Assembly: GCA_947450095.1 (NCBI GenBank)
Contig: CANFUF010000006.1
Location: forward strand, 1,004-65,003
Direction: 5' to 3'
Origin: Roseiflexaceae bacterium
GTDB lineage: Bacteria; Chloroflexota; Chloroflexia; Chloroflexales; Roseiflexaceae
DNA: 64,000 bases
Of this stretch, positions 8,859 to 18,761 are shown one piece after another (position 1 is the first letter of the stretch; each line of letters begins with the position of its first letter). The notes beneath the pieces are model-generated. The model was given only the letters and a program-made list of their open reading frames with translations, made no database searches and had not been told where the DNA came from. The translations under genes were made by a program, and so were the position numbers.

Positions 8859-9221
8859 TTATCGGGGCGTAGGCGTATACATTCCGTTGATGAGTGGCAT
8901 CGATGCTGTGGCACATTGTGTGATGATTGCTACTTCGGTGGCATTAGGGAGTTCTCCCGATTGGACAATTTGGGGTACGCGTTTTTTGCCTATTTGCGCG
9001 CCCACACAGATTTTTTGCTCCATATTCATGGCACGCATGGTCAGCACTAACGCATTTATTACGGTTGCTGTGGGTTGTTGCGCAGTAGGGGTGGTGATTG
9101 TTTGTGTGGTTGTTGGGACTGTTGCAGGTACGGTGGTGTTTGTTAAGGTTGTCGGGAGCGACATTCTACAACTACTGCTGATGCTTGCAACCAGTGCCAA
9201 AAATAGAAAAATACGTATCAT
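8859..9221 (-). CDS. Hypothetical small secreted or lipid-anchored Thr-rich protein
   Basis: Internal ATG at 9221 with upstream GGAG gives MIRIFLFLALVASISSSC (signal-peptide or lipobox-like), followed by a Thr/Pro-rich stretch. No family recognised. Confidence 0.45.
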   Translation of the reverse strand: MIRIFLFLALVASISSSCRMSLPTTLTNTTVPATVPTTTQTITTPTAQQPTATVINALVLTMRAMNMEQKICVGAQIGKKRVPQIVQSGELPNATEVAIITQCATASMPLINGMYTPTPR

Positions 9222-9311
9222 GGAAGTCTCCATAATTGCAAGATTTACACAATAATATGCTGTTAGTATATGGTATTTATAATGAGTAAATGTCATAATT
9301 ACGGTACGGTA

Positions 9312-9320: not shown

Positions 9321-9363
9321 TTATACTAATCTTTGCGTTATTCTTTTAGAAATCGAGGGTAAT

Positions 9364-12144
9364 ATGGCATTTTTACCACTTCGTGACACAATCGGGCTTC
9401 CTAATGCCATCAAAATATACTGGGATACCCTAGATGTGCCGATTCGGCGCATCTTGGTCAAGCAACTTTTTGCAAATAAAGAACTTATCGATAAGCGCAC
9501 CAAAATACATGCCTATGACGATTTATTAGCCAAAAAACTGAATTTTCGCCAAAAATCTATCATCGAAAAACCCCTTGATTGGCGCATTGATCGCGTAGTG
9601 TTGCTGAGTGAATCACAGACACTGATTATGCACGATATTTGTCGTCGTTATTTGACGATTATGCAGGCGACCATGTTTAGCGAAATTCAAATCATTGCCA
9701 ACGGCGATCAACCAGAACCATCCCAAGGAAAGTATCCAGTGGAATGGTATCTCCGTGTGGTTGATTATTTGACAACCCAGGCCGTTCCCCCATTGGCATG
9801 TATGTTTATGTTTGCCATGTTTGCGGATTGCGAAGGACGCGATCAGGCATTTGCCGACGATCGTTACGAAGCAATTTGGCAAGCTCATTTGGCATGGTAC
9901 CGCGATCGCAGCATCCTCCCTGAATCAGCACAAAGCATCCCCGAAATCCTTACGCCCGTGACCTCAGAACCGCCCACCGATGTGCCAGTGCCACCGAAAA
10001 AAGAACCAGTACGCCCCCAAGCAGTGCGTCTGGTGATTCCTTCTGCCCCTGTGAAAACACTCCCGCTCCGTCCGGTTATGCCACCCCCACCGCCAGCCCT
10101 CGCGACTGTGCCAGCAAGTTTTGGAGCCCTGCAATACTTGGTTAATCGTGCGATTGAAGATTGCTGCGCCCAAATCAAAGGTGCATTGTCCCACGAATCG
10201 ATGCGCGAGGCCTTGCAGGAATTATTGCGCCTCAATAGTAATTCGTTGCCCTATTTTTATCATATAGGCTACTTTCAAGGATTATCAACGGCAAAATTCA
10301 CCAGCGAGAAACAACAAACCCAAATTGGCCAAGCCTGGGCGTTTTTTGGCTTTGTGATGGGAAGTCATCGTGATAATGGTGATGCAGTTGCTGGGGTCAT
10401 CGAACGCAATGCGCTCCTGTGGCAACTCATGCTCAAAAACATCCCGCCTATGGATTTACAAGTACTATACACACTCATGCCGGCATTGATTGCCTATCGC
10501 GCCTATGATGATATCGCCGATATCATGGCGCATAGTAGCGTGCCCTATCTGACCCATGCGGAGCACCCCGATAGTGTGGCCATGGTGATTTATCAAGTGG
10601 CGGCTGATTTGGTGCGTAACGGCACGCAATTGCCCCAAGCAGATCGTATTTTGCAGTTGTTAATTACCCAACTCGATGAGGCCGGTCTGCGCGGTAATTT
10701 ATATGGCCGTTGTTTGCGTAAGCGCGGCCAGTATTTTCGCCGTAAAAAACAATTTCACCAAGCCAGCGAATTATTTCAACAGGCAATTGCCATGCCCGAA
10801 TTTAGTGAAATCGCACAGACCCACGCCGATATCGGTATGGCACTGGCCAATTTCCCCGGGCTTGATGCGTTGCTTCCCAGTGATAATCATGATTTCAGAG
10901 TGGTAATCCCGGCAATTCGTGGCCAACGTGACCATTTCGAACGAGCAGTGCAATCTGGTGTTGGCGATGATACCAATGCGCAATTTGTGTTGGGATTAAT
11001 CGCGTTTGGCGAAGGCGATTACCTCGAGTCGCTGGAATACTTCCGCGTGGCCCAAATCGGGATGGAACGTCAATTGAGTGCCTATAAAGTCCGTGATTTG
11101 TACGATTGGTTGTTGTTCCTCAAAATCCGTACGTGGTCGCAACAAGTACAGCTCAGCGAAATTTCCCTATTTCGGGATGAATTAGAAGTCGTGTTCCGCT
11201 CACAAATCTTTTTCCCATTGAAACATTGGCTCAATATATTCCGCGATGTCAACAAAGTCCATCCCGAAACCGGCCGGATTATCATGATTCACTTGTTTAA
11301 CTATCGTGATGTCGATATTTATGATCTCTGTAGCATCGCAGAAGTATTTGAACAACCCTACGAAATCTGGCGCCGCTACTTTTTTGGCTCAATCAAATAC
11401 AACAACCTCAGTCGTGCCGAAAAATACACCCGTTTAACCGAAGCATGGCATATTGTGTTGGGTAACCATCAAGGTGAGGCCGCAGATTTTGTGCTGGAAT
11501 TGTTCGAAATGCATAGTACGAGCTATAGCGACTATGCGCCGTTGGTCAATCAGTTGTTTATTGAATATCTGGACGATATTTTGCGTTTGTGGGACGAAAC
11601 TGACGTGCTCTACTTACGCGCACAATTGCTGTTCATGTCAGGCCAAAGTGAAGAGGCGATTTCGTTATTGGTACAGCTGTTGAATATTTTTCTGGGGCGC
11701 CAAGAAATTCCCCAAGCCCAAGCAATTTATGCATGGCTTGAGCAACTCCATTACGCCGATATCGCGCAGTATACCCAGATTATCCAAGGTCCGGTTGCCC
11801 GCACCCGGTATGCCACCGAACCGTGTCGGGTGTTGTATGTGGGTGGTAACGAAACCCAGCAAAGTTTTAAAGATGAAATTGTCGCCAAACTTGCAACCAC
11901 CCATCCGCATATTCATGTGGAATGGGAATTGATTGGTTGGCGCTCGAATTGGGGCGACGAAGCCGCCCGCATCGAACGGCGCATCCCCACCGTCGATTTG
12001 GTCATCCTGAGCCCCTATGTGCGCACCTTGTTTGGCCGCCAAATCCGCAAAGCCGCCACCAATTGGCGGGCATCCACCGGCAAAGGCCAAGGCAAAATTT
12101 ATAGTGATATCGTGGCCGCAGTAGAATCATTCCAACTGCGCTAA
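9364..12144 (+). CDS. Large multidomain hypothetical protein: unknown N-domain, Pro-rich linker, TPR-like helical repeats, DUF2325-like C-terminal alpha/beta module
   Basis: 926-aa uninterrupted ORF with GAGGG 5 nt before the ATG. Pro-rich segment at aa ~185-252. TPR-like hairpins (for example NAQFVLGLIAFGEGDYLESLEYFRVAQ). C-terminus reads RVLYVGGNE...VDLVILSPYVRTLFGRQIRKAA. Confidence 0.7.
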   Translation: MAFLPLRDTIGLPNAIKIYWDTLDVPIRRILVKQLFANKELIDKRTKIHAYDDLLAKKLNFRQKSIIEKPLDWRIDRVVLLSESQTLIMHDICRRYLTIMQATMFSEIQIIANGDQPEPSQGKYPVEWYLRVVDYLTTQAVPPLACMFMFAMFADCEGRDQAFADDRYEAIWQAHLAWYRDRSILPESAQSIPEILTPVTSEPPTDVPVPPKKEPVRPQAVRLVIPSAPVKTLPLRPVMPPPPPALATVPASFGALQYLVNRAIEDCCAQIKGALSHESMREALQELLRLNSNSLPYFYHIGYFQGLSTAKFTSEKQQTQIGQAWAFFGFVMGSHRDNGDAVAGVIERNALLWQLMLKNIPPMDLQVLYTLMPALIAYRAYDDIADIMAHSSVPYLTHAEHPDSVAMVIYQVAADLVRNGTQLPQADRILQLLITQLDEAGLRGNLYGRCLRKRGQYFRRKKQFHQASELFQQAIAMPEFSEIAQTHADIGMALANFPGLDALLPSDNHDFRVVIPAIRGQRDHFERAVQSGVGDDTNAQFVLGLIAFGEGDYLESLEYFRVAQIGMERQLSAYKVRDLYDWLLFLKIRTWSQQVQLSEISLFRDELEVVFRSQIFFPLKHWLNIFRDVNKVHPETGRIIMIHLFNYRDVDIYDLCSIAEVFEQPYEIWRRYFFGSIKYNNLSRAEKYTRLTEAWHIVLGNHQGEAADFVLELFEMHSTSYSDYAPLVNQLFIEYLDDILRLWDETDVLYLRAQLLFMSGQSEEAISLLVQLLNIFLGRQEIPQAQAIYAWLEQLHYADIAQYTQIIQGPVARTRYATEPCRVLYVGGNETQQSFKDEIVAKLATTHPHIHVEWELIGWRSNWGDEAARIERRIPTVDLVILSPYVRTLFGRQIRKAATNWRASTGKGQGKIYSDIVAAVESFQLR

Positions 12145-12189
12145 AAAAACCGTACAATACCAAAGTGATACCGCATCAAAGGAGTACTC

Positions 12190-13719
12190 ATGTCAGCCCG
12201 AACTGAAGCATTGTTGCGCGCCTTAAATTTGACTGAACGTAACCTCGGCACCTGTAGCGGTCCCGAATGGCTCCAAACCAGCGGCGAATGGATTCCCAGC
12301 TATGATCCAGCTACCGGCGAAGTCATCGCCTATGTTCAATCCGCCGATATAGCCAGCTATGACGCCACCGTGGCCGCGGCTCAAGCCGCATTTGCCACGT
12401 GGCGCAATGTGCCTGCTCCCAAACGTGGTGAAATGATCCGCGATTTGGGAAATTTGCTCCGTGAATACAAAGAACCCTTGGGTGAACTCGTAGCCCTCGA
12501 AATGGGCAAAATCCGCCCCGAAGGATTGGGCGAAGTCCAAGAAATGATCGACATCTGCGATTTTGCGGTGGGCCTCAGCCGCCAATTGTACGGCTTGACT
12601 ATGCACAGCGAGCGCCCCCAACATCGCATGTACGAACAATGGCATCCCCTCGGTCCCATCGGGATTATCTCGGCTTTCAACTTCCCCGTGGCGGTCTGGA
12701 GCTGGAATGCCGCCATCGCTGCAGTATGTGGCGATACCAACGTCTGGAAGCCGTCAGAATTGGTGCCGTTGACCGCCGTGGCAGTGCAGCATCTCGCCAA
12801 TCGCGTCATGGCTGCGCATGGCGTCACTGGTGTCTTTACCTTGGCGGTCGGTAATGGTGCCGTAATTGGCCAACGGATGTCCGAAGACACCCGCTTGCCC
12901 TTGATTTCGTTTACCGGCAGCACCCGTACCGGCCGCAAAGTTGCCCAAACCGTCGCCGGGCGCTTTGGTAAATCGATCCTCGAACTCGGTGGCAACAACG
13001 CCATCATCGTCACTGCCAATGCCGACCTCGACATGACGGTACGGGCGGTATTGTTTGGTGCGGTGGGTACCGCTGGTCAGCGTTGTACCACTACGCGGCG
13101 CTTGATTGTCCACGAAAGTGTGGTTGAGGCCTTGTGTCAACGCCTCGTCAAGGCCTATGCCAGCGTCCCCATCGGCAATCCCCTCGACGCCGGTACCTTG
13201 GTTGGGCCATTGGCAACCACCGCAGCGGTGACGTCGATGATGGCGGCTCTTGAGCGTGCCCAAGCCGGCGGTGGTCAGGTGTTGGTGGGGGGCAAGGCCC
13301 GTCCCGACATCGGCGCTAACTTTGTCGAGCCAACGATTGTACGTATGCCCAAACAAATCGACGTCGTCTGCGAAGAAACCTTTGCGCCGATTTTGTATAT
13401 CATGAGCTACTCGACTATTGACCAAGCCATTGCCATGCATAATGACGTGGCTCAAGGTTTGAGCAGTGCGATCTTTACTGATAGCATGCGCGAAGCCGAA
13501 TTGTTCTTGTCACACGGTGGGAGCGATTGTGGGATTGCCAACGTCAATATTGGTACTAGCGGTGCCGAAATCGGTGGCGCATTTGGTGGCGAAAAAGAAA
13601 CCGGCGGTGGTCGTGAAAGCGGCAGCGATGCATGGCGGGCTTATATGCGCCGCCAGACCAATACCATCAATTGGGGCAACAGCTTGCCATTGGCCCAAGG
13701 CATCCAGTTCGGCGATTAA
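12190..13719 (+). CDS. Aldehyde dehydrogenase, ALDH7 / alpha-aminoadipic-semialdehyde (piperideine-6-carboxylate) dehydrogenase-like
   Basis: FNFPVAVWSWNAAIA, KPSE, ELGGNNA and GTAGQRCTT (catalytic Glu and Cys). N-terminal pattern SGEWIPSYDPATGEVIA is typical of antiquitin-type enzymes. Confidence 0.85.
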   Translation: MSARTEALLRALNLTERNLGTCSGPEWLQTSGEWIPSYDPATGEVIAYVQSADIASYDATVAAAQAAFATWRNVPAPKRGEMIRDLGNLLREYKEPLGELVALEMGKIRPEGLGEVQEMIDICDFAVGLSRQLYGLTMHSERPQHRMYEQWHPLGPIGIISAFNFPVAVWSWNAAIAAVCGDTNVWKPSELVPLTAVAVQHLANRVMAAHGVTGVFTLAVGNGAVIGQRMSEDTRLPLISFTGSTRTGRKVAQTVAGRFGKSILELGGNNAIIVTANADLDMTVRAVLFGAVGTAGQRCTTTRRLIVHESVVEALCQRLVKAYASVPIGNPLDAGTLVGPLATTAAVTSMMAALERAQAGGGQVLVGGKARPDIGANFVEPTIVRMPKQIDVVCEETFAPILYIMSYSTIDQAIAMHNDVAQGLSSAIFTDSMREAELFLSHGGSDCGIANVNIGTSGAEIGGAFGGEKETGGGRESGSDAWRAYMRRQTNTINWGNSLPLAQGIQFGD

Positions 13720-13732
13720 TCATAGATAAACG

Positions 13733-13771
13733 AAATCCCCGTGTAGTGCAGATGCACTACACGGGGATTTT
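13733..13771. terminator. Bidirectional rho-independent terminator between convergent genes
   Basis: aaatccccgtgtagtgca (13733-13750) pairs with tgcactacacggggattt (13753-13770). A-run before, T-run after. Confidence 0.7.
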
Positions 13772-13781
13772 GCTGTATAAC

Positions 13782-14531
13782 CTACAAAAACGTTTGTAAC
13801 GCCCACACCAACAACGGTCCGATTAACAATGCTGGTAGTAAGGCGGCGATGCGTAGTTTGGTGATGTCGAGCAGATTTAAGCCTAACCCCAACAAAATAA
13901 TCCCACCGGTACAGGTCGCGATCAATACCGTGGGGTTGTGGGTTGGGTCAGGGACAAGTTGAGCTAAACTCCCTGCCGCCAATGAAATTCCCCCTTGGAA
14001 CAACAACAACGGTACTGCCGACACCAGCACTCCCAGCCCATAGCTACTCGCCAAGGCGGCTGCGGTAATGGTGTCGAGGACGGTTTTGATAATCAAGAGT
14101 TGATTGTCGCCCCGTAAGCCATTGTCGATACTCCCCAAAATCGTGACGGGACCCACACAAAAAATCAAAAACGCGGCGAATAATCCTTCGCTAAAGCGTT
14201 GGTCATTGCTCTGCCCCAAGCGTTGTTGTACGCTGTTGGCGAGTGATCCGAGGCGGGCATCGAGATTGAGTGCTTCGCCGATACCACCGCCGACGGTGAT
14301 TGCGACTAACGCGATTACGATGCCGGCTACCCCGTGAATCGAAATATCACTGAGTCCCCAGGCAATCCGCATCCCCAGAAATAATGTGGTGAGCCCGATT
14401 GCTGATTGAACGGTATTGGCGATGCGTGGTGGTAAGGAATTGCGAAAAAAAAGCCCGACCAACGCCCCAATTAATACCCCGATGGCGTTGAGCACGCTCC
14501 CGTTGGTTTGTTGCCATAATGACAAAAGCAT
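13782..14531 (-). CDS. DUF554 (YqgA/YdfK-like) membrane protein
   Basis: GSVLNAIGVLIGALVGLFFRNSLPPRIANTVQSAIGLTTLFLGM matches the DUF554 N-terminal pattern. Polytopic, 249 aa. Confidence 0.75.
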   Translation of the reverse strand: MLLSLWQQTNGSVLNAIGVLIGALVGLFFRNSLPPRIANTVQSAIGLTTLFLGMRIAWGLSDISIHGVAGIVIALVAITVGGGIGEALNLDARLGSLANSVQQRLGQSNDQRFSEGLFAAFLIFCVGPVTILGSIDNGLRGDNQLLIIKTVLDTITAAALASSYGLGVLVSAVPLLLFQGGISLAAGSLAQLVPDPTHNPTVLIATCTGGIILLGLGLNLLDITKLRIAALLPALLIGPLLVWALQTFL

Positions 14532-14534
14532 TGA

Positions 14535-14589
14535 GCCCTCCTCGTAATTTTTGTGTGTATTGATTATACGAGATAATGAGGGCTTTTTT
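14535..14589 (-). promoter_or_regulatory. Leader hairpin overlapping the Shine-Dalgarno of the DUF554 gene
   Basis: On the minus-strand mRNA, gccctc...ctcgta pairs with tacgag-gagggc. The 3' arm contains the GGAGGG SD, 4-10 nt before ATG 14531. Confidence 0.3.
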
Positions 14590-14629
14590 GTGGTGTCGTG
14601 TGTGTGATAATGCGCTATGCTGGTCTGCG

Positions 14630-15217
14630 TTAATTCATCTGATGGATTACAGACTGTTGGGTCATGATGCGCTCTGCAACAGGGTGGCCACCCATGAGCA
14701 TCTGCCCATTATCGAGGAATAATGCCCCTGTGAGTACGCGTGATGACCGACCCATCAAAAACAGCATCGTGGTGTTTGGTGTGTGCGAGGATTTTTTTTG
14801 GCGGATACAGTTGATACGTACGCGCTGATATGCCCACATTAATGATTGTCTGCGGAAATATGTTTCGATTTCGTGAATGTTGCAATTATTTTCGCTGATG
14901 CAGGCTACATATGACAGCGACTGTTTAATCATCAGTGGTAATGGCAATAATGTGCATAATTGAATTCCAAATTGCCAACTAAGTGCGGTACTGTCTGCCT
15001 GAATCGTATTTATAATTGCATCAATTTGTTGGACTTGTGCTAAACTGTTGTTTATACGCTGTAACAATGTACTCCAATCATTGACTGACGAGTGTGCCTC
15101 CCAAATCGTCGTCGGGTGCGGTTGGCTATGCGTCAATCTGACCGTAATATCGAGCGCGGTACAGTCAATTGTTACGTTGATTTGCTGTTCGTTGGTGTCC
15201 CAACATGAAATGGGCAT
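14630..15217 (-). CDS. Hypothetical protein (no family recognised)
   Basis: Low-GC ORF. Start taken at MPISCWD (15217) so it does not overlap the divergent GntR gene. The C-terminal GALFLDNGQMLMGGHPVAE only vaguely recalls sugar-kinase/ROK glycine motifs. Confidence 0.4.
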   Translation of the reverse strand: MPISCWDTNEQQINVTIDCTALDITVRLTHSQPHPTTIWEAHSSVNDWSTLLQRINNSLAQVQQIDAIINTIQADSTALSWQFGIQLCTLLPLPLMIKQSLSYVACISENNCNIHEIETYFRRQSLMWAYQRVRINCIRQKKSSHTPNTTMLFLMGRSSRVLTGALFLDNGQMLMGGHPVAERIMTQQSVIHQMN

Positions 15218-15307
15218 AACTGCCTCAATGGTAATATACGTTTTAGAATAGAAAACCCGTGTACCTGTATGATAGGTTTTGAATAGTATACATGAGGATA
15301 GATTACT

Positions 15308-16069
15308 GTGCAAGAACATGGGGCATTGCGTAAAATCGCCAAAATCACGTTAGTAGAACAGACTGTCGATCGTGTGCAGTCATATGTATTGAGCCGGCAA
15401 TTACAACCTGGTGATACCTTGCCGTCAGAGATGCGTTTAGCCGAGACACTCGGCGTAAGTCGCCCTGTAGTGCGTGAAGCATTACGTACCTTGGTAGGAC
15501 GGGGGATGTTGACCATCGCCAATGGACGGAATGCCATTATCAGCCCGGTAACCGCCACTGCGTTGGTGCATTTTTTTGAGCGGGCTACGCAATTAAATGC
15601 GGTGACGGTGGTTGAGTTACTCGAAGTACGGCGTGGCATTGAAGTTCAGTCGATTTCGCTGGCAGCCCAACGTCGCACTGATGACCATATTGCAAAATTA
15701 AAATCGTTGCTAGCTGCGATGTACGATACGCGCTATGATTTGCAGTTGTATAGTGAGTTTGATGCGCAGTTGCATTTGCAATTTGCCGCAGCAAGTCAAA
15801 ATCAGATGATTTATTATTTTGTGGAATCACTCGGTGATGCATTGCGTCAAGTGAGCTTAGCAGGGCTTCAACATCGCCGAAATCGTGCTGAATTAGACGA
15901 AGTTCATCAAATGCATCAACAACTGGTATTTGCGGTGATAACCCAAAATAGTGCACTGGCGGAATTATCTATGGCATCACATGTAGAATCCGCAATGGTT
16001 GCGTTACGTCGCACTGGTGAAGATGGCGTGATTTCGGGAACTTCTACGGATAAAATGACGTCGTTGTAA
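15308..16069 (+). CDS. GntR/FadR family transcriptional regulator (winged HTH plus FCD domain)
   Basis: LPSEMRLAETLGVSRPVVREALRTLVGRGML is the GntR HTH signature. Helical C-terminal FCD-like half. GTG start. Confidence 0.85.
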   Translation: MQEHGALRKIAKITLVEQTVDRVQSYVLSRQLQPGDTLPSEMRLAETLGVSRPVVREALRTLVGRGMLTIANGRNAIISPVTATALVHFFERATQLNAVTVVELLEVRRGIEVQSISLAAQRRTDDHIAKLKSLLAAMYDTRYDLQLYSEFDAQLHLQFAAASQNQMIYYFVESLGDALRQVSLAGLQHRRNRAELDEVHQMHQQLVFAVITQNSALAELSMASHVESAMVALRRTGEDGVISGTSTDKMTSL

Positions 16070-16109
16070 TAGGTAATAGTGCTGATGATCCACTGAATGT
16101 GTATCGTTT

Positions 16110-16138
16110 TTGACAAATCACTGGTAAGTATGTACTAT
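16110..16138 (+). promoter_or_regulatory. Candidate sigma-70-type promoter for the MerR-family gene
   Basis: TTGACA (16110-16115), a 17-nt spacer, then TACTAT (16133-16138), about 38 nt upstream of ATG 16176. Confidence 0.35.
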
Positions 16139-16175
16139 TGCTGTAAGTTTTCGGTAATACTGTAAGGATTACTCA

Positions 16176-16835
16176 ATGAATAAAGATGGCGTAACAATAA
16201 ACGAATTATCCAAGATGGCAAATGTCACGGTGCGCACAATTCGGTTTTATACCGATGAGGGTGTGCTTGATGAGCCAGCTGGCCGCGATCGCTATGCCCG
16301 CTATACGCGCAGACACTATCTGCAGTTGAATGCCGCCCGAACCCTCAAAGAGCGCTTTCTGCCGTTGCGGGTGATTCGTGATCAAATGGCGTCGATGAGT
16401 GAATCCGATCTTGAGCGATTGGCTGGCCCAATTCCAACGCCTATTGAAGCCCGCTTCAATGAGGCCGAAGGAATTGAGAGTGCGACTGCGGCACATATTA
16501 TTGCGGCTCAGCAAATTGCATCGGTTGCATCAATGCCCCACCATGTGCGTTCGTTTGCGCCGCTTGACAATGATCTTAGTGCGAAATCACTTAATGAATC
16601 TGAATTTGATTTTTTGAGTGAGACCGTACACGAAGAACCCATCAAGCCAAAATTTACCATGCAAAGTGATCGTGGTTTGGTTCGTCATAATCAACCTGCG
16701 CAACCAGTGAATGCAATTGGCGATGTGTGGCATCGGATTGTGATTAGCCCGAGTATGGAACTCCATGTGCGTGAAGACGGTATGCAAGAAGCTGGCGAAA
16801 TTCGCCGTATATTGGCCTCGTTGCGTAAACGATAA
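16176..16835 (+). CDS. MerR family transcriptional regulator with uncharacterised C-terminal half
   Basis: INELSKMANVTVRTIRFYTDEGVLDEP...RYARYTRRHYLQL is a MerR-type HTH. The C-terminal ~130 aa lack Cys and match no family I recognise. Confidence 0.8.
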   Translation: MNKDGVTINELSKMANVTVRTIRFYTDEGVLDEPAGRDRYARYTRRHYLQLNAARTLKERFLPLRVIRDQMASMSESDLERLAGPIPTPIEARFNEAEGIESATAAHIIAAQQIASVASMPHHVRSFAPLDNDLSAKSLNESEFDFLSETVHEEPIKPKFTMQSDRGLVRHNQPAQPVNAIGDVWHRIVISPSMELHVREDGMQEAGEIRRILASLRKR

Positions 16836-16858
16836 TTTCGTCAATTAAACAGTACCTC

Positions 16859-16894
16859 ATCCCCTTTGATAATTGTATCAAGGGGGATTTTTTT
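16859..16894 (+). terminator. Rho-independent terminator after the MerR gene
   Basis: atcccctttgata (16859-16871) pairs with tatcaagggggat (16876-16888), followed by T7 (16888-16894). Confidence 0.7.
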
Positions 16895-16987
16895 GATGAA
16901 AAAACGATGAGAAAATCGTATGTGTTGTGAATACAAGAAATACCAGTGCTATGATAGTGCTGATTCGTGACGATCAAAGGAATTTAC

Positions 16988-17452
16988 ATGTCGGATGTAC
17001 GCAAACGGAATGCGTGGAATGTGGTCATTGATACGGCAATTTTTGTGGCGTTTGTAGTAGCTACTGCGCCACGGTTTACAGGGATTGCGCTCCATGAATG
17101 GTTGAGTATCGCGTTTGCTGCCGTGATTGTGATTCATTTAGTGGTGCATTGGCAGTGGGTTATCACCGTCGGGATGGGCTTTATCCGTAGATTAGGTGCT
17201 GCAGGCCGGTTTAGTTTTGTGCTGAATTTGTTGCTATTTATTGCAGTGACTTTGTTGATTTATAGTGGGGTTGCTATTTCCCGTGATGTCATGCCGGCGC
17301 TTGGGATTGATATTCGAGGCGCAATGGCGTGGCGGGGGTTGCATCGTGCGTTTTCAAATATTAGTGTGGTGTTGATTGGATTGCATGTGGCCTTGCATTG
17401 GCGTTGGATTGTCAATTTGTTTCGCCGGCAATCACGAACTATGACGAAATAG
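16988..17452 (+). CDS. DUF4405-like membrane protein (putative heme-b-binding, His-rich TM helices)
   Basis: Four TM segments with paired histidines (IALHEW...VIVIHLVVHWQW; GLHRAF...IGLHVALHWRW). ATG 16988 is preceded by AAGGA. Confidence 0.6.
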   Translation: MSDVRKRNAWNVVIDTAIFVAFVVATAPRFTGIALHEWLSIAFAAVIVIHLVVHWQWVITVGMGFIRRLGAAGRFSFVLNLLLFIAVTLLIYSGVAISRDVMPALGIDIRGAMAWRGLHRAFSNISVVLIGLHVALHWRWIVNLFRRQSRTMTK

Positions 17453-17463
17453 GAGTAGTGTAG

Positions 17464-17745
17464 ATGAAGTCGATTTTACATGGCGTAATTGTGTTGATTG
17501 TGGCTGCCACAATTGCGTGGTCTGCCCAATTCGCACTTGATCAGGGCAAATTAGGAGATTTGCATTTTGCCGAAGGACGGGGCCCTGGCTTGCGGATTGG
17601 TGGCGATGGTGGTGGTGAAGGTCGTCGCCGTGGCCAAGGGAACGTGGGTGAACTTGTCGGCACATTGCTCGAAATGACGGCGATTACCACCGTAGTGGTA
17701 ATTGGTGGCAAAATTCGCCAAGCACGCCGGCGCCGTAGTCGTTAA
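17464..17745 (+). CDS. Hypothetical small membrane-anchored Gly/Arg-rich protein
   Basis: 93 aa with GGAG 7 nt upstream. N-terminal TM (VIVLIVAATIAWSA), a GGDGGGEGRRRGQG stretch, a second hydrophobic segment and an RRRRSR tail. Lies 11 nt after the DUF4405 gene. Confidence 0.45.
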   Translation: MKSILHGVIVLIVAATIAWSAQFALDQGKLGDLHFAEGRGPGLRIGGDGGGEGRRRGQGNVGELVGTLLEMTAITTVVVIGGKIRQARRRRSR

Positions 17746-17882
17746 TTGCATGCCATTGGCGTGCAAAGAGTCCGCGGAGCTGTTTTCAATTTTCTTCATC
17801 AAATCTAAACAAAACTTGGGGAACGTTTATTGGTGTGCGGCGGTCTGTATGCCATAAGCTGATTTCAATGAAGGACAAAACG

Positions 17883-18761
17883 ATGAAGATGCACCACTGG
17901 TTAGGAATTGCAGTTACCGGCGTATTAATCGCCATCGCAAGCGTCACCACCGTCAGTGCCTTGCCGATTCCCCCCAAGCCGACAACGACTCCTCAATTGC
18001 CACTAGCCACCCCCCAACCGACCCAACTTGCTCCCCAGACGACGCGCATTCCCGCCCCTGCAGCGGTCCCGAACTTCTTGGTCAATTGTGCCACTGGTCA
18101 AGTCAACAACGTTGATCCAATTGTGATGCCAGGGATGGCTGCCATGAGCCACTATCACCAATTCTTTGGGAATCGGTCAACCAACGAAAACTCCACCTTT
18201 ACCACCTTGCGTGCCAATCGTGCCACCACCTGTGCCCCTGCTTCTGATGCATCTGCTTATTGGGCACCACAGTTGTGGCGTGGGAGCGTGGCCATCAATC
18301 CCAAAAATGTGACGGTTGTTTATTCCAAGAGCGTGACCAACCGCTTGATGCCCCACCCCGGTGGTTTGATGTTGATTGCGGGTAATTCCAAGGCTACTGC
18401 AGCTCAAGATCTGAATGTGGTGTCATGGTACTGTAGCAATGCCCCCCGTGATGTGGCCAGCACGCCACCGTTGTGTGCCCGGACCGCTGATTTGGTGGCC
18501 GATGTACGCTTCCCTGAATGTTGGAACGGCAAAGACCTCGATTCTGCTGACCACAAGAGCCACGTGACGTATGCCGCCAATGGTGTTTGTGCCGCCGGAA
18601 CTGTCGCCTTGCCCCGCATCGACTTGCTGGTGCACTACCCAGCTCAAGCCAATGTCGCCGAACTCGCCATGTCGTCAGGCTCCATCTACTCGATGCATGC
18701 TGACTTCTTCAACGCTTGGGACCCTGCCGCATTTGGTCAGCTGGTCGGCCGCATCCGCTAA
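17883..18761 (+). CDS. Secreted DUF1996 domain protein
   Basis: VDPIVMPGMAAMSHYHQFFGN...TCAPASDASAYWAPQLW and RFPECWNGKDLDSADHKSHV fit the DUF1996 pattern. Signal peptide MKMHHWLGIAVTGVLIAIASVTTVSA. Start at 17883 (AAGGA upstream). Confidence 0.7.
   Translation: MKMHHWLGIAVTGVLIAIASVTTVSALPIPPKPTTTPQLPLATPQPTQLAPQTTRIPAPAAVPNFLVNCATGQVNNVDPIVMPGMAAMSHYHQFFGNRSTNENSTFTTLRANRATTCAPASDASAYWAPQLWRGSVAINPKNVTVVYSKSVTNRLMPHPGGLMLIAGNSKATAAQDLNVVSWYCSNAPRDVASTPPLCARTADLVADVRFPECWNGKDLDSADHKSHVTYAANGVCAAGTVALPRIDLLVHYPAQANVAELAMSSGSIYSMHADFFNAWDPAAFGQLVGRIR

Follow-up and report, generated by a model that had tools for sequence, protein, structure and literature searches.

Sensors of the Avs/STAND-TPR and DSR2-like types are single-gene proteins in which a long helical-repeat platform is combined with small terminal domains, and their patchily distributed genes are located in defence islands. 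For DpdD of the Dpd system, and likewise for DrmE of DISARM class 2, the role is stated as unknown. Anti-phage gene arrays can be built with YprA-type helicases, and the DISARM class I, ARMADA, and Druantia III arrays of this kind are described in a preprint on YprA helicases (bioRxiv 10.1101/2025.09.15.676423). The present work sets against these systems the gene for a protein of 926 amino acids (aa) that was found in a 64,000-nucleotide (nt) stretch of DNA, hereafter the window, from a Roseiflexaceae bacterium of the phylum Chloroflexota (GenBank assembly GCA_947450095.1, contig CANFUF010000006.1, positions 1,004 to 65,003 of the forward strand). In the best explanation, whose chances we place slightly above even, the 926-aa protein would be a non-enzymatic sensor or adaptor of defence-island origin that bears a ligand-binding DUF2325-like module, its function being read only from gene neighbours.

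The protein consists of an N-terminal domain (N-domain), a proline-rich linker, a helical solenoid, and a C-terminal domain (C-domain), the same four segments that an initial annotation, made from the letters of the window, had read from the translation. That annotation also regarded the protein as an orphan, a description that has to be given up. A word-indexed search of 5.8 billion proteins retrieved 23 full-length clusters of 915–926 aa at 43–94% identity, the named ones among which are Chloroflexota or Roseiflexaceae metagenome-assembled genomes; furthermore, an exhaustive phmmer search of 1.84 billion cluster representatives returned 563 proteins at E ≤ 1e-3 and 359 at E ≤ 1e-10, each match standing for a cluster at 50% identity. 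Nearly all of these matches are 880–960 aa in length and align over aa ~250–920, with phmmer E = 1e-60 to 1e-19, and tblastn against loci from Verrucomicrobiota, Planctomycetota, and Hydrogenedentota gave E = 2e-43 to 1e-12. The distant members, at 22–31% identity, come from Verrucomicrobiales, Phycisphaerales and other Planctomycetota, and Candidatus Hydrogenedens. When 57 alignment columns conserved to at least 85% in 50 distant members were compared with the freshwater Roseiflexaceae genus to which the window belongs, 43 were kept, including the whole C-domain signature, and scans of the protein, its three segments, and the 50 distant members with Pfam, NCBIfam, and PADLOC gave TPR matches only. 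Judged from these alignments, the window protein is a genus-specific branch of a large, unnamed superfamily of ~900-aa proteins, all four parts being common to its members.

Beyond the genus, the family occurs rarely, with a scattered distribution over phyla, and in one copy per genome: each of nine carrier genomes holds one family gene, and two of 401 sampled Verrucomicrobiota genomes carry the family, with only 12 candidates scored per genome. A phage collection contained no family match, and a plasmid collection contained one member, located on the 572-kb plasmid pEDY32-46I of Euzebya pacifica (Actinomycetota; hhalign E = 4.7e-40). This Euzebya member (WP_114594635.1, 895 aa, annotated as 'hypothetical protein'; L137:2534-11079) begins at the stop codon of a gene for a hypothetical protein of 1952 aa that is not DruE-like by BLAST, and the two genes may form an undescribed two-gene module.

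The defence connection is drawn from 93 loci (designated here by L numbers), in which 731 neighbouring open reading frames (ORFs) were compared by all-against-all BLAST and selected neighbours were examined with PADLOC. Distant members are found recurrently in or beside YprA-type helicase anti-phage arrays of the DISARM class I, Druantia III, and ARMADA-like types, with PADLOC E-values of the defence neighbours down to 1e-304. For instance, in L036, L060, and L061 the family gene overlaps the start of DrmA–DrmB–DrmC, with DrmMI and a UG35/UG36 reverse-transcriptase pair upstream; other gene orders are family–GajB-like UvrD helicase–DrmA–DrmB (L034) and DrmMI–DrmA–DrmB–DrmC–x–family (L109), and DISARM occupies the opposite strand in L073. 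Similarly, a DruE-like helicase and a GajB-like helicase precede the family gene in L040 and L064 (L065 is similar), whilst L066 reads DruE-like–SNF2 (DpdE/DrmD-like)–family–DrmMI-like methylase, L124 reads SNF2–methylase–Mko/Hhe-like helicase–family–DruH3–2062-aa protein, and PDC-S26 precedes the family gene in L057 and L058. Weaker contexts comprise a CHAT-TPR protein, an Eco57I-like methylase with RecC, and a mad8/HerA-like ATPase. Defence neighbours were counted in 14 of the 29 independent lineages whose flanks extend to 8 kb or more; this count is a lower bound made without matched controls, and it took in only homologs of defence genes already identified. None of the 731 ORFs is a universal partner gene, and because the position relative to the DISARM genes varies (before DrmA, after DrmC, or convergent), the family gene looks like an independent island module, not a fixed subunit. 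Separately, the reverse-transcriptase pair in L060 (4033–6731; UG35-like and UG36, DRT) lies between DrmMI and family–DrmA–DrmB–DrmC and makes this locus a composite defence island.

The C-domain, whose translation runs RVLYVGGNE...VDLVILSPYVRTLFGRQIRKAA...IYSDIVAAVES, had been taken in the initial annotation for a small alpha/beta module resembling DUF2325. The first half of this statement is borne out by an AlphaFold2 model of aa 806–926, built with 28 sequences across phyla, which reached a predicted local distance difference test score (pLDDT) of 87.8 and a predicted template-modelling score (pTM) of 0.81 and comprises four beta-alpha units. The signature YVGGNETQ / GWxSNW / VRTxFGRxxR / WxxSTGxG characterizes the C-domain; its motifs GGNE.Q, GW.S.W, RT..G...R, and W...G.G are invariant across phyla and kept in the genus, where only F854W and C904S differ. 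In the secondary-structure string of the model, GGNETQ, GWxSNW, RTxFGRxxR, and WxxxTGxG follow strands 1, 2, 3, and 4 directly, and in such folds this edge of the sheet is the usual place for ligand binding. Matches of the C-domain to PDB structures were only generic flavodoxin- or Rossmann-like ones (best E = 3e-3), and its profile found nothing at E < 0.4 among PDB sequences. The fold neighbours are RpiB, PTS-IIB chitobiose (template-modelling score 0.56–0.62), Argonaute MID, MilB, TIR, and receiver domains, of which PTS-IIB, RpiB, Argonaute MID, MilB, and TIR are phosphate- or nucleotide-binding modules.

The second half of the statement, the DUF2325 likeness, stood in part. The Pfam model of DUF2325 (PF10087, gathering threshold 33.6 bits) gave no match to aa 800–926 at E ≤ 10, none in a six-frame search of the genome, and none in the 50 distant members; strict membership was therefore rejected. 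A shallow hhalign comparison of 28 C-domains with seven Chloroflexota DUF2325 segments gave a probability of 15.9%, with only the strand 1-GG segment aligned. A deep comparison of 69 non-redundant C-domains, drawn from the 93 loci, with ten true DUF2325 domains gave a probability of 90.8% (E = 1.2e-6) over 101 columns, against 1.3% for a reversed control and at most 1.0% for ten column-shuffled controls. This result supports a remote homology, which was accepted. In the alignment, all secondary-structure elements are in register: strand 1 with VGG, strand 2, strand 3 of the acidic-xVV form, a helix, strand 4, and a further helix. DUF2325 domains, true or near threshold, are likewise C-terminal on long helical Chloroflexota proteins of 889 aa and about 640 aa; the signature residues differ in that the C-domain carries GGNETQ, GWxSNW, and RTxFGR where DUF2325 has GGh, an SH motif, and conserved Cys residues. 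No characterised function for DUF2325 was found in the searchable literature, and since DUF2325 is without known function, the link provides no mechanism.

Two loci add observations on these domains. In another Chloroflexota bacterium, the 889-aa protein (L052:4142-6811, minus strand) ends in a near-threshold DUF2325 of 27.9 bits and shows a weak alignment to the last 190 residues of the superfamily (hhalign E = 0.001); a 901-aa protein without a Pfam match (L052:709-3414, minus strand) is encoded ~700 nt downstream on the same strand, past a 309-aa ORF. In Pedosphaerales, a 223-aa protein (L041:5665-6336) consists of little more than the GGNETQ C-domain, no remains of a solenoid precede it, and the same 12-kb region encodes an Eco57I-like methylase, RecC, and a UvrD-like helicase. 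Because of the Pedosphaerales protein, the C-domain can be said to stand alone.

This stand-alone form, in a region with restriction-modification and RecC genes, also enters into a rather improbable alternative, according to which the protein would be an effector enzyme. The C-domain, alone or with the block that follows the linker (YH.GY, W325, R336), would act on a nucleotide or phospho-sugar with catalysis as in MilB, TIR, and RpiB-type folds, and the solenoid would be the regulatory sensor. The polar or charged residues that are invariant across phyla (E830, Q832, S861, R887, T888, and R895) would suit a catalytic site, and some of the fold neighbours are enzymes whose active site lies at the same edge of the sheet; however, these residues fit binding equally well, DUF2325 has no known activity, and the C-domain presents neither a significant PDB match nor a known catalytic motif. 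The 926-aa protein is probably non-enzymatic.

The remaining segments of the protein are consistent with the layout proposed at first (Table 1). The N-domain, described there as a globular region without a recognised motif, was modelled with confidence (pLDDT 90.5, pTM 0.85), and it has no Pfam match at E ≤ 10, no PDB structure match (best E = 1.2), and no match in a viral structure library (best E = 2.2); on this model, it may be a new fold. Although the N-domain seemed unique by BLAST, hhalign relates it to the N-terminal region of the distant members (93.5% probability, E = 2.3e-7, 137 columns), and H90, D91, C93, W128, Y129, R131, C156, G158, and R159 are invariant in the genus. The linker, which contains PVPPKKEPVRPQ...PVMPPPPPAL, is flexible and indeed rich in proline; it is gapped and unconserved in the alignment, and its length and sequence vary among relatives. 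Beyond it, the solenoid starts with a conserved block (LN..., YH.GY, W325, G329, and R336), and the claimed TPR-like hairpins are substantiated by Pfam matches to TPR_2, TPR_12, TPR_16, and TPR_14 at aa 423–477, 523–564, and 745–774. TPR_2 (33.5 bits, cut-off 27) and TPR_12 (31.6 bits, cut-off 30.1) lie above their gathering thresholds, and only three TPR motifs are recognisable in the solenoid, which has kept most of the columns conserved throughout the family. As no 19-residue window reaches transmembrane hydropathy (the highest mean is 1.45), there is no predicted transmembrane segment and the protein is cytoplasmic. The ORF with its Shine-Dalgarno sequence and the peptide strings quoted in the initial annotation were all recovered as given.

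Table 1. Features of the 926-aa gene and its downstream flank, in window coordinates.
Feature	Position	Strand	Remarks
Whole ORF	9364–12144	+	ATG start; 926 aa plus stop; read from sequence
Shine-Dalgarno GAGGG	9355–9359	+	4 nt ahead of ATG; read from sequence
N-domain, aa 1–185	9364–9918	+	All-alpha, 12 helices; AlphaFold2 model of aa 1–190
Proline-rich linker, aa 186–252	9919–10119	+	30% proline vs 5% for the whole protein
Helical solenoid, aa 253–815 (~560 residues)	10120–11808	+	TPR motifs; helical by inspection of the translation
C-domain, aa 816–926	11809–12141	+	Predicted four-stranded beta-alpha (flavodoxin-like) module; remote DUF2325 homolog
45-nt gap between the 926-aa gene and ALDH	12145–12189	+	Carries AAGGAG ribosome-binding site of ALDH
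Downstream ALDH gene	12190–13719	+	L-piperidine-6-carboxylate (alpha-aminoadipate semialdehyde) dehydrogenase type
17-base-pair GC-rich hairpin	13733–13770		Between convergent ALDH and DUF554 genes

Within its own genus, the 926-aa gene is a fixed, syntenic, single-copy core gene. Whole-genome searches found it, in single copy, in 24 of 25 genomes of the genus (the lone exception is 69% complete), in none of 36 genomes from 18 other genera of the family, and in one of the 52 genera of the whole class; it is likewise single copy in the genome that contains the window. Three divergent relatives share the gene order of the window, namely HpcH aldolase–(variable slot)–926-aa gene–ALDH–DUF554–GntR–MerR–cysNC/cysD. 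The gene is real and under strong purifying selection: the ratio of nonsynonymous to synonymous substitution rates (dN/dS) against close relatives is 0.06–0.07 for the whole gene, 0.03 for the C-domain, and 0.06–0.08 for the N-domain, the highest values (0.08–0.24) being those of the linker. Between divergent members of the genus, the C-domain retains 69–79% identity. In a tree of the superfamily, the genus clade is monophyletic on a long stem (SH-aLRT support 100, stem length 1.42); L109 and L114 were not accepted as a donor lineage, their joining to the genus clade being flagged as long-branch attraction. One genome of the genus (L055/L056; G402:C170:25023-27777) has the gene split into two overlapping frames, aa 1–431 and 425–916, and this frameshift near residue 428 is either a pseudogene or an assembly error.

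These features of a core gene also bear on the main rival to the defence-derived sensor. According to this unlikely account, the protein is a housekeeping scaffold or regulator for the adjacent lysine-catabolism ALDH or for the HpcH aldolase/GntR neighbourhood, is co-transcribed with ALDH, and has defence-island relatives that are irrelevant to its present function. The ALDH gene, which scores 788.6 bits against NCBIfam NF050084 (cut-off 730), adjoins the 926-aa gene in every genus relative fetched with flanking DNA; it follows after 45 nt, and these contain no terminator-like site, as the initial annotation had said. The first strong hairpin downstream of the 926-aa gene stands after ALDH, where it likely ends a transcript of which the 926-aa gene may be part. 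A housekeeping role would moreover suit a gene that is universal, single-copy, and strongly constrained in streamlined genomes, that has no adjacent defence genes, and in which some family-conserved polar residues are altered in the genus. However, common descent by itself would leave such synteny within one genus, and an ALDH, HpcH, or GntR gene adjoins the family gene at none of about 85 distant loci; when conservation of possible partners was checked, neither ALDH nor the small secreted protein encoded upstream proved to be kept outside the genus. In the same genome pairs, the 926-aa protein diverges far more than ALDH, with 43–48% identity across the genus where ALDH keeps 84–87%, and its dN/dS is about three times higher than the 0.02 of ALDH. 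A promoter-like site at 12098–12127, within the 3' end of the 926-aa ORF and 63 nt 5' of the ALDH start, further weakens the case for co-transcription, since ALDH may have its own promoter there; this site (TTTATA-18 nt-TAGAAT) matches nine of 12 positions, and such sites occur in the region as often as in shuffled sequence.

The initial annotation had placed the gene in a lower-GC patch and thought it possibly horizontally acquired. The GC deficit is real and the sampled 60-nt lines at 9541, 11221, and 13201 contain 25, 28, and 39 G+C, where 26–28 and 39 had been given; at the same time, the low GC of the ORF is mild. The ORF has 48.3% GC vs 53.0% for the genome, which corresponds to the 10th percentile of equal-sized (2.8-kb) genome windows and the 8th percentile of long ORFs, and its third-position GC ranks at the 13th percentile among ORFs with 300 aa or more. 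Codon usage is ordinary: its divergence is at the 21st percentile, and 79% of ORFs with 600 aa or more depart further from the genome mean. As a recent event, the acquisition does not stand. That the window protein might be the product of an orphan gene on a recently acquired low-GC island is scarcely credible, even though the GC value and the absence of the gene from all other genera of the family and class would speak for such an island; the mild composition and codon usage, the fixed position in 24 of the 25 genus genomes, and the monophyly of the genus clade are against it, and no integrase, tRNA, or repeat evidence was seen among the neighbouring genes. Furthermore, the 926-aa gene is 1–9 GC points below the adjacent ALDH in all 17 relatives compared, so that the deficit is a property of the gene and no trace of recent transfer. 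The recent-island explanation was rejected on composition and on presence at one locus, and an ancient transfer into the ancestor of the genus, as we infer it, stays within the best explanation. A second lower-GC patch at window 14000–18000 (0.45–0.50 per kb) covers the genes for a 229-aa protein without a family and for GntR/FCD and MerR regulators, whose gene GC is 0.43–0.49; because the same genes are syntenic across the genus, this low GC looks intrinsic and not that of an island.

Taken as a sensor or adaptor that originated in defence islands, the protein would have had the following history. One copy would have been acquired by the ancestor of the freshwater Roseiflexaceae genus in a single ancient event, have become fixed at its site between the genes for the HpcH aldolase and ALDH, and have descended vertically ever since, with purifying selection acting on it. 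The solenoid and N-domain would bind a macromolecular target or partner, and the C-domain loops at the C-terminal edge of the sheet (GGNETQ, GWxSNW, RTxFGRxxR, and TGxG after strands 1–4) would, in the predicted model, line a pocket that accepts an anionic, phosphate-bearing ligand or else provide a surface for docking, and through it the protein would be switched or coupled. Members of the family that lie in defence islands would then be free-standing sensors or adaptors beside helicase-nuclease systems, and in the genus the protein would work on its own, whether it has kept a part in immunity or surveillance or has been exapted to another role.

Several observations weigh against the sensor explanation. 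The defence link is guilt by association with distant relatives at 22–31% identity, and 15 of the 29 distant lineages have no recognised defence neighbour in a limited reference set. PADLOC found no defence genes beside the 926-aa gene in the window, and a strong hit to a helicase of the large YprA type, judged by the MZB/DUF1998 domain typical of YprA defence helicases, was found in only two of 21 genus genomes, so that the gene does not travel with a YprA-type system in its own genus. Immune genes are not typically universal, syntenic, and strongly constrained, as this gene is in streamlined genomes of 3.1–3.5 Mb. Of the polar residues that hardly vary in the distant family, four are changed in the window protein (D257, R294, N319, and R322), although D257 is kept in half of the genus, and C904 is Ser throughout the genus. 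As to the ligand, the structure search of the C-domain against PDB gave nothing at E ≤ 1e-3, and the idea of a pocket follows from the position of the motifs in a predicted model.

A broader proposal, which we advance tentatively and regard as doubtful, is that the superfamily constitutes a novel and widely distributed module for immunity or surveillance, encoded by a single gene, in which a DUF2325-like ligand-binding domain would serve as the read-out of a solenoid sensor, and the sensor would work together with YprA-helicase systems or act as their backup; the genus would then represent a rare fixation of such a module as a universal core gene of a streamlined genome. If so, the superfamily, carried in at least four phyla with its 563 clusters, would offer the first functional handle on DUF2325-type domains, and a defence role would add a common unnamed component to the DISARM, Druantia, and ARMADA landscape. 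The genus itself poses the question of why a streamlined planktonic bacterium keeps a 2.8-kb gene of the defence-island type in every genome, at one site, and under strong selection: either the gene would serve immunity as a core function, or a protein of immune type would have been co-opted for housekeeping.

Among the neighbouring genes of the window (HpcH aldolase, ALDH, DUF554, GntR, and MerR), two further details were recorded. Between the genes for the HpcH aldolase and the 926-aa protein, the content of the slot (window 8859–9296, minus strand) varies among relatives: close relatives have a gene for a 145-aa Thr-rich putative secreted protein at 29–73% identity, L005 has a minus-strand gene for 395 aa, and the slot is empty in L001 and L003. 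The MerR regulator (window 16176–16835) matches the PADLOC model mad1 at E = 2e-8 over its first 47 residues, the helix–turn–helix, only; a match confined to this part is no evidence for a MADS system.

In comparison with known systems, the initial annotation knew of no characterised system with this layout, and none was found here either. Distant members lie within, or end, gene orders that match the ARMADA, Druantia III, and DISARM arrays in the YprA-helicase preprint (bioRxiv 10.1101/2025.09.15.676423), the matching array genes being those for a YprA-like helicase, a BrxHII-like SNF2, a PglX-like methylase, a GajB-like helicase, and DruH3-DruE3; the family protein is absent from the components named in its text, and, unlike in these arrays, none of the matching genes lies near the 926-aa gene in the window. 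DrmE and DpdD resemble the family in being large proteins without recognisable catalytic motifs that are encoded beside DrmA/DrmB- or DpdJ-type helicases, and the family gene takes the slot just upstream of DrmA, overlapping its start, in L036, L060, and L061. Identity with either one was rejected, as the PADLOC models PDLC02636 (DrmE) and PDLC02835 (DpdD) matched no family gene in the nine carrier genomes at E ≤ 1, and neither protein was found in the PADLOC and NCBIfam scans of the 926-aa protein and the 50 distant members; moreover, the position of the family relative to DISARM genes is not fixed, and the window has no such system. Compared with Avs/STAND-TPR and DSR2-like sensors, library scans detected no NTPase, SIR2, TIR, nuclease, or protease domain in the family, and the 926-aa gene belongs to the fixed core of its genus instead of being accessory; what the family shares with these sensors is a repeat platform with small terminal domains, encoded by a single gene of patchy spread that is found in defence islands.

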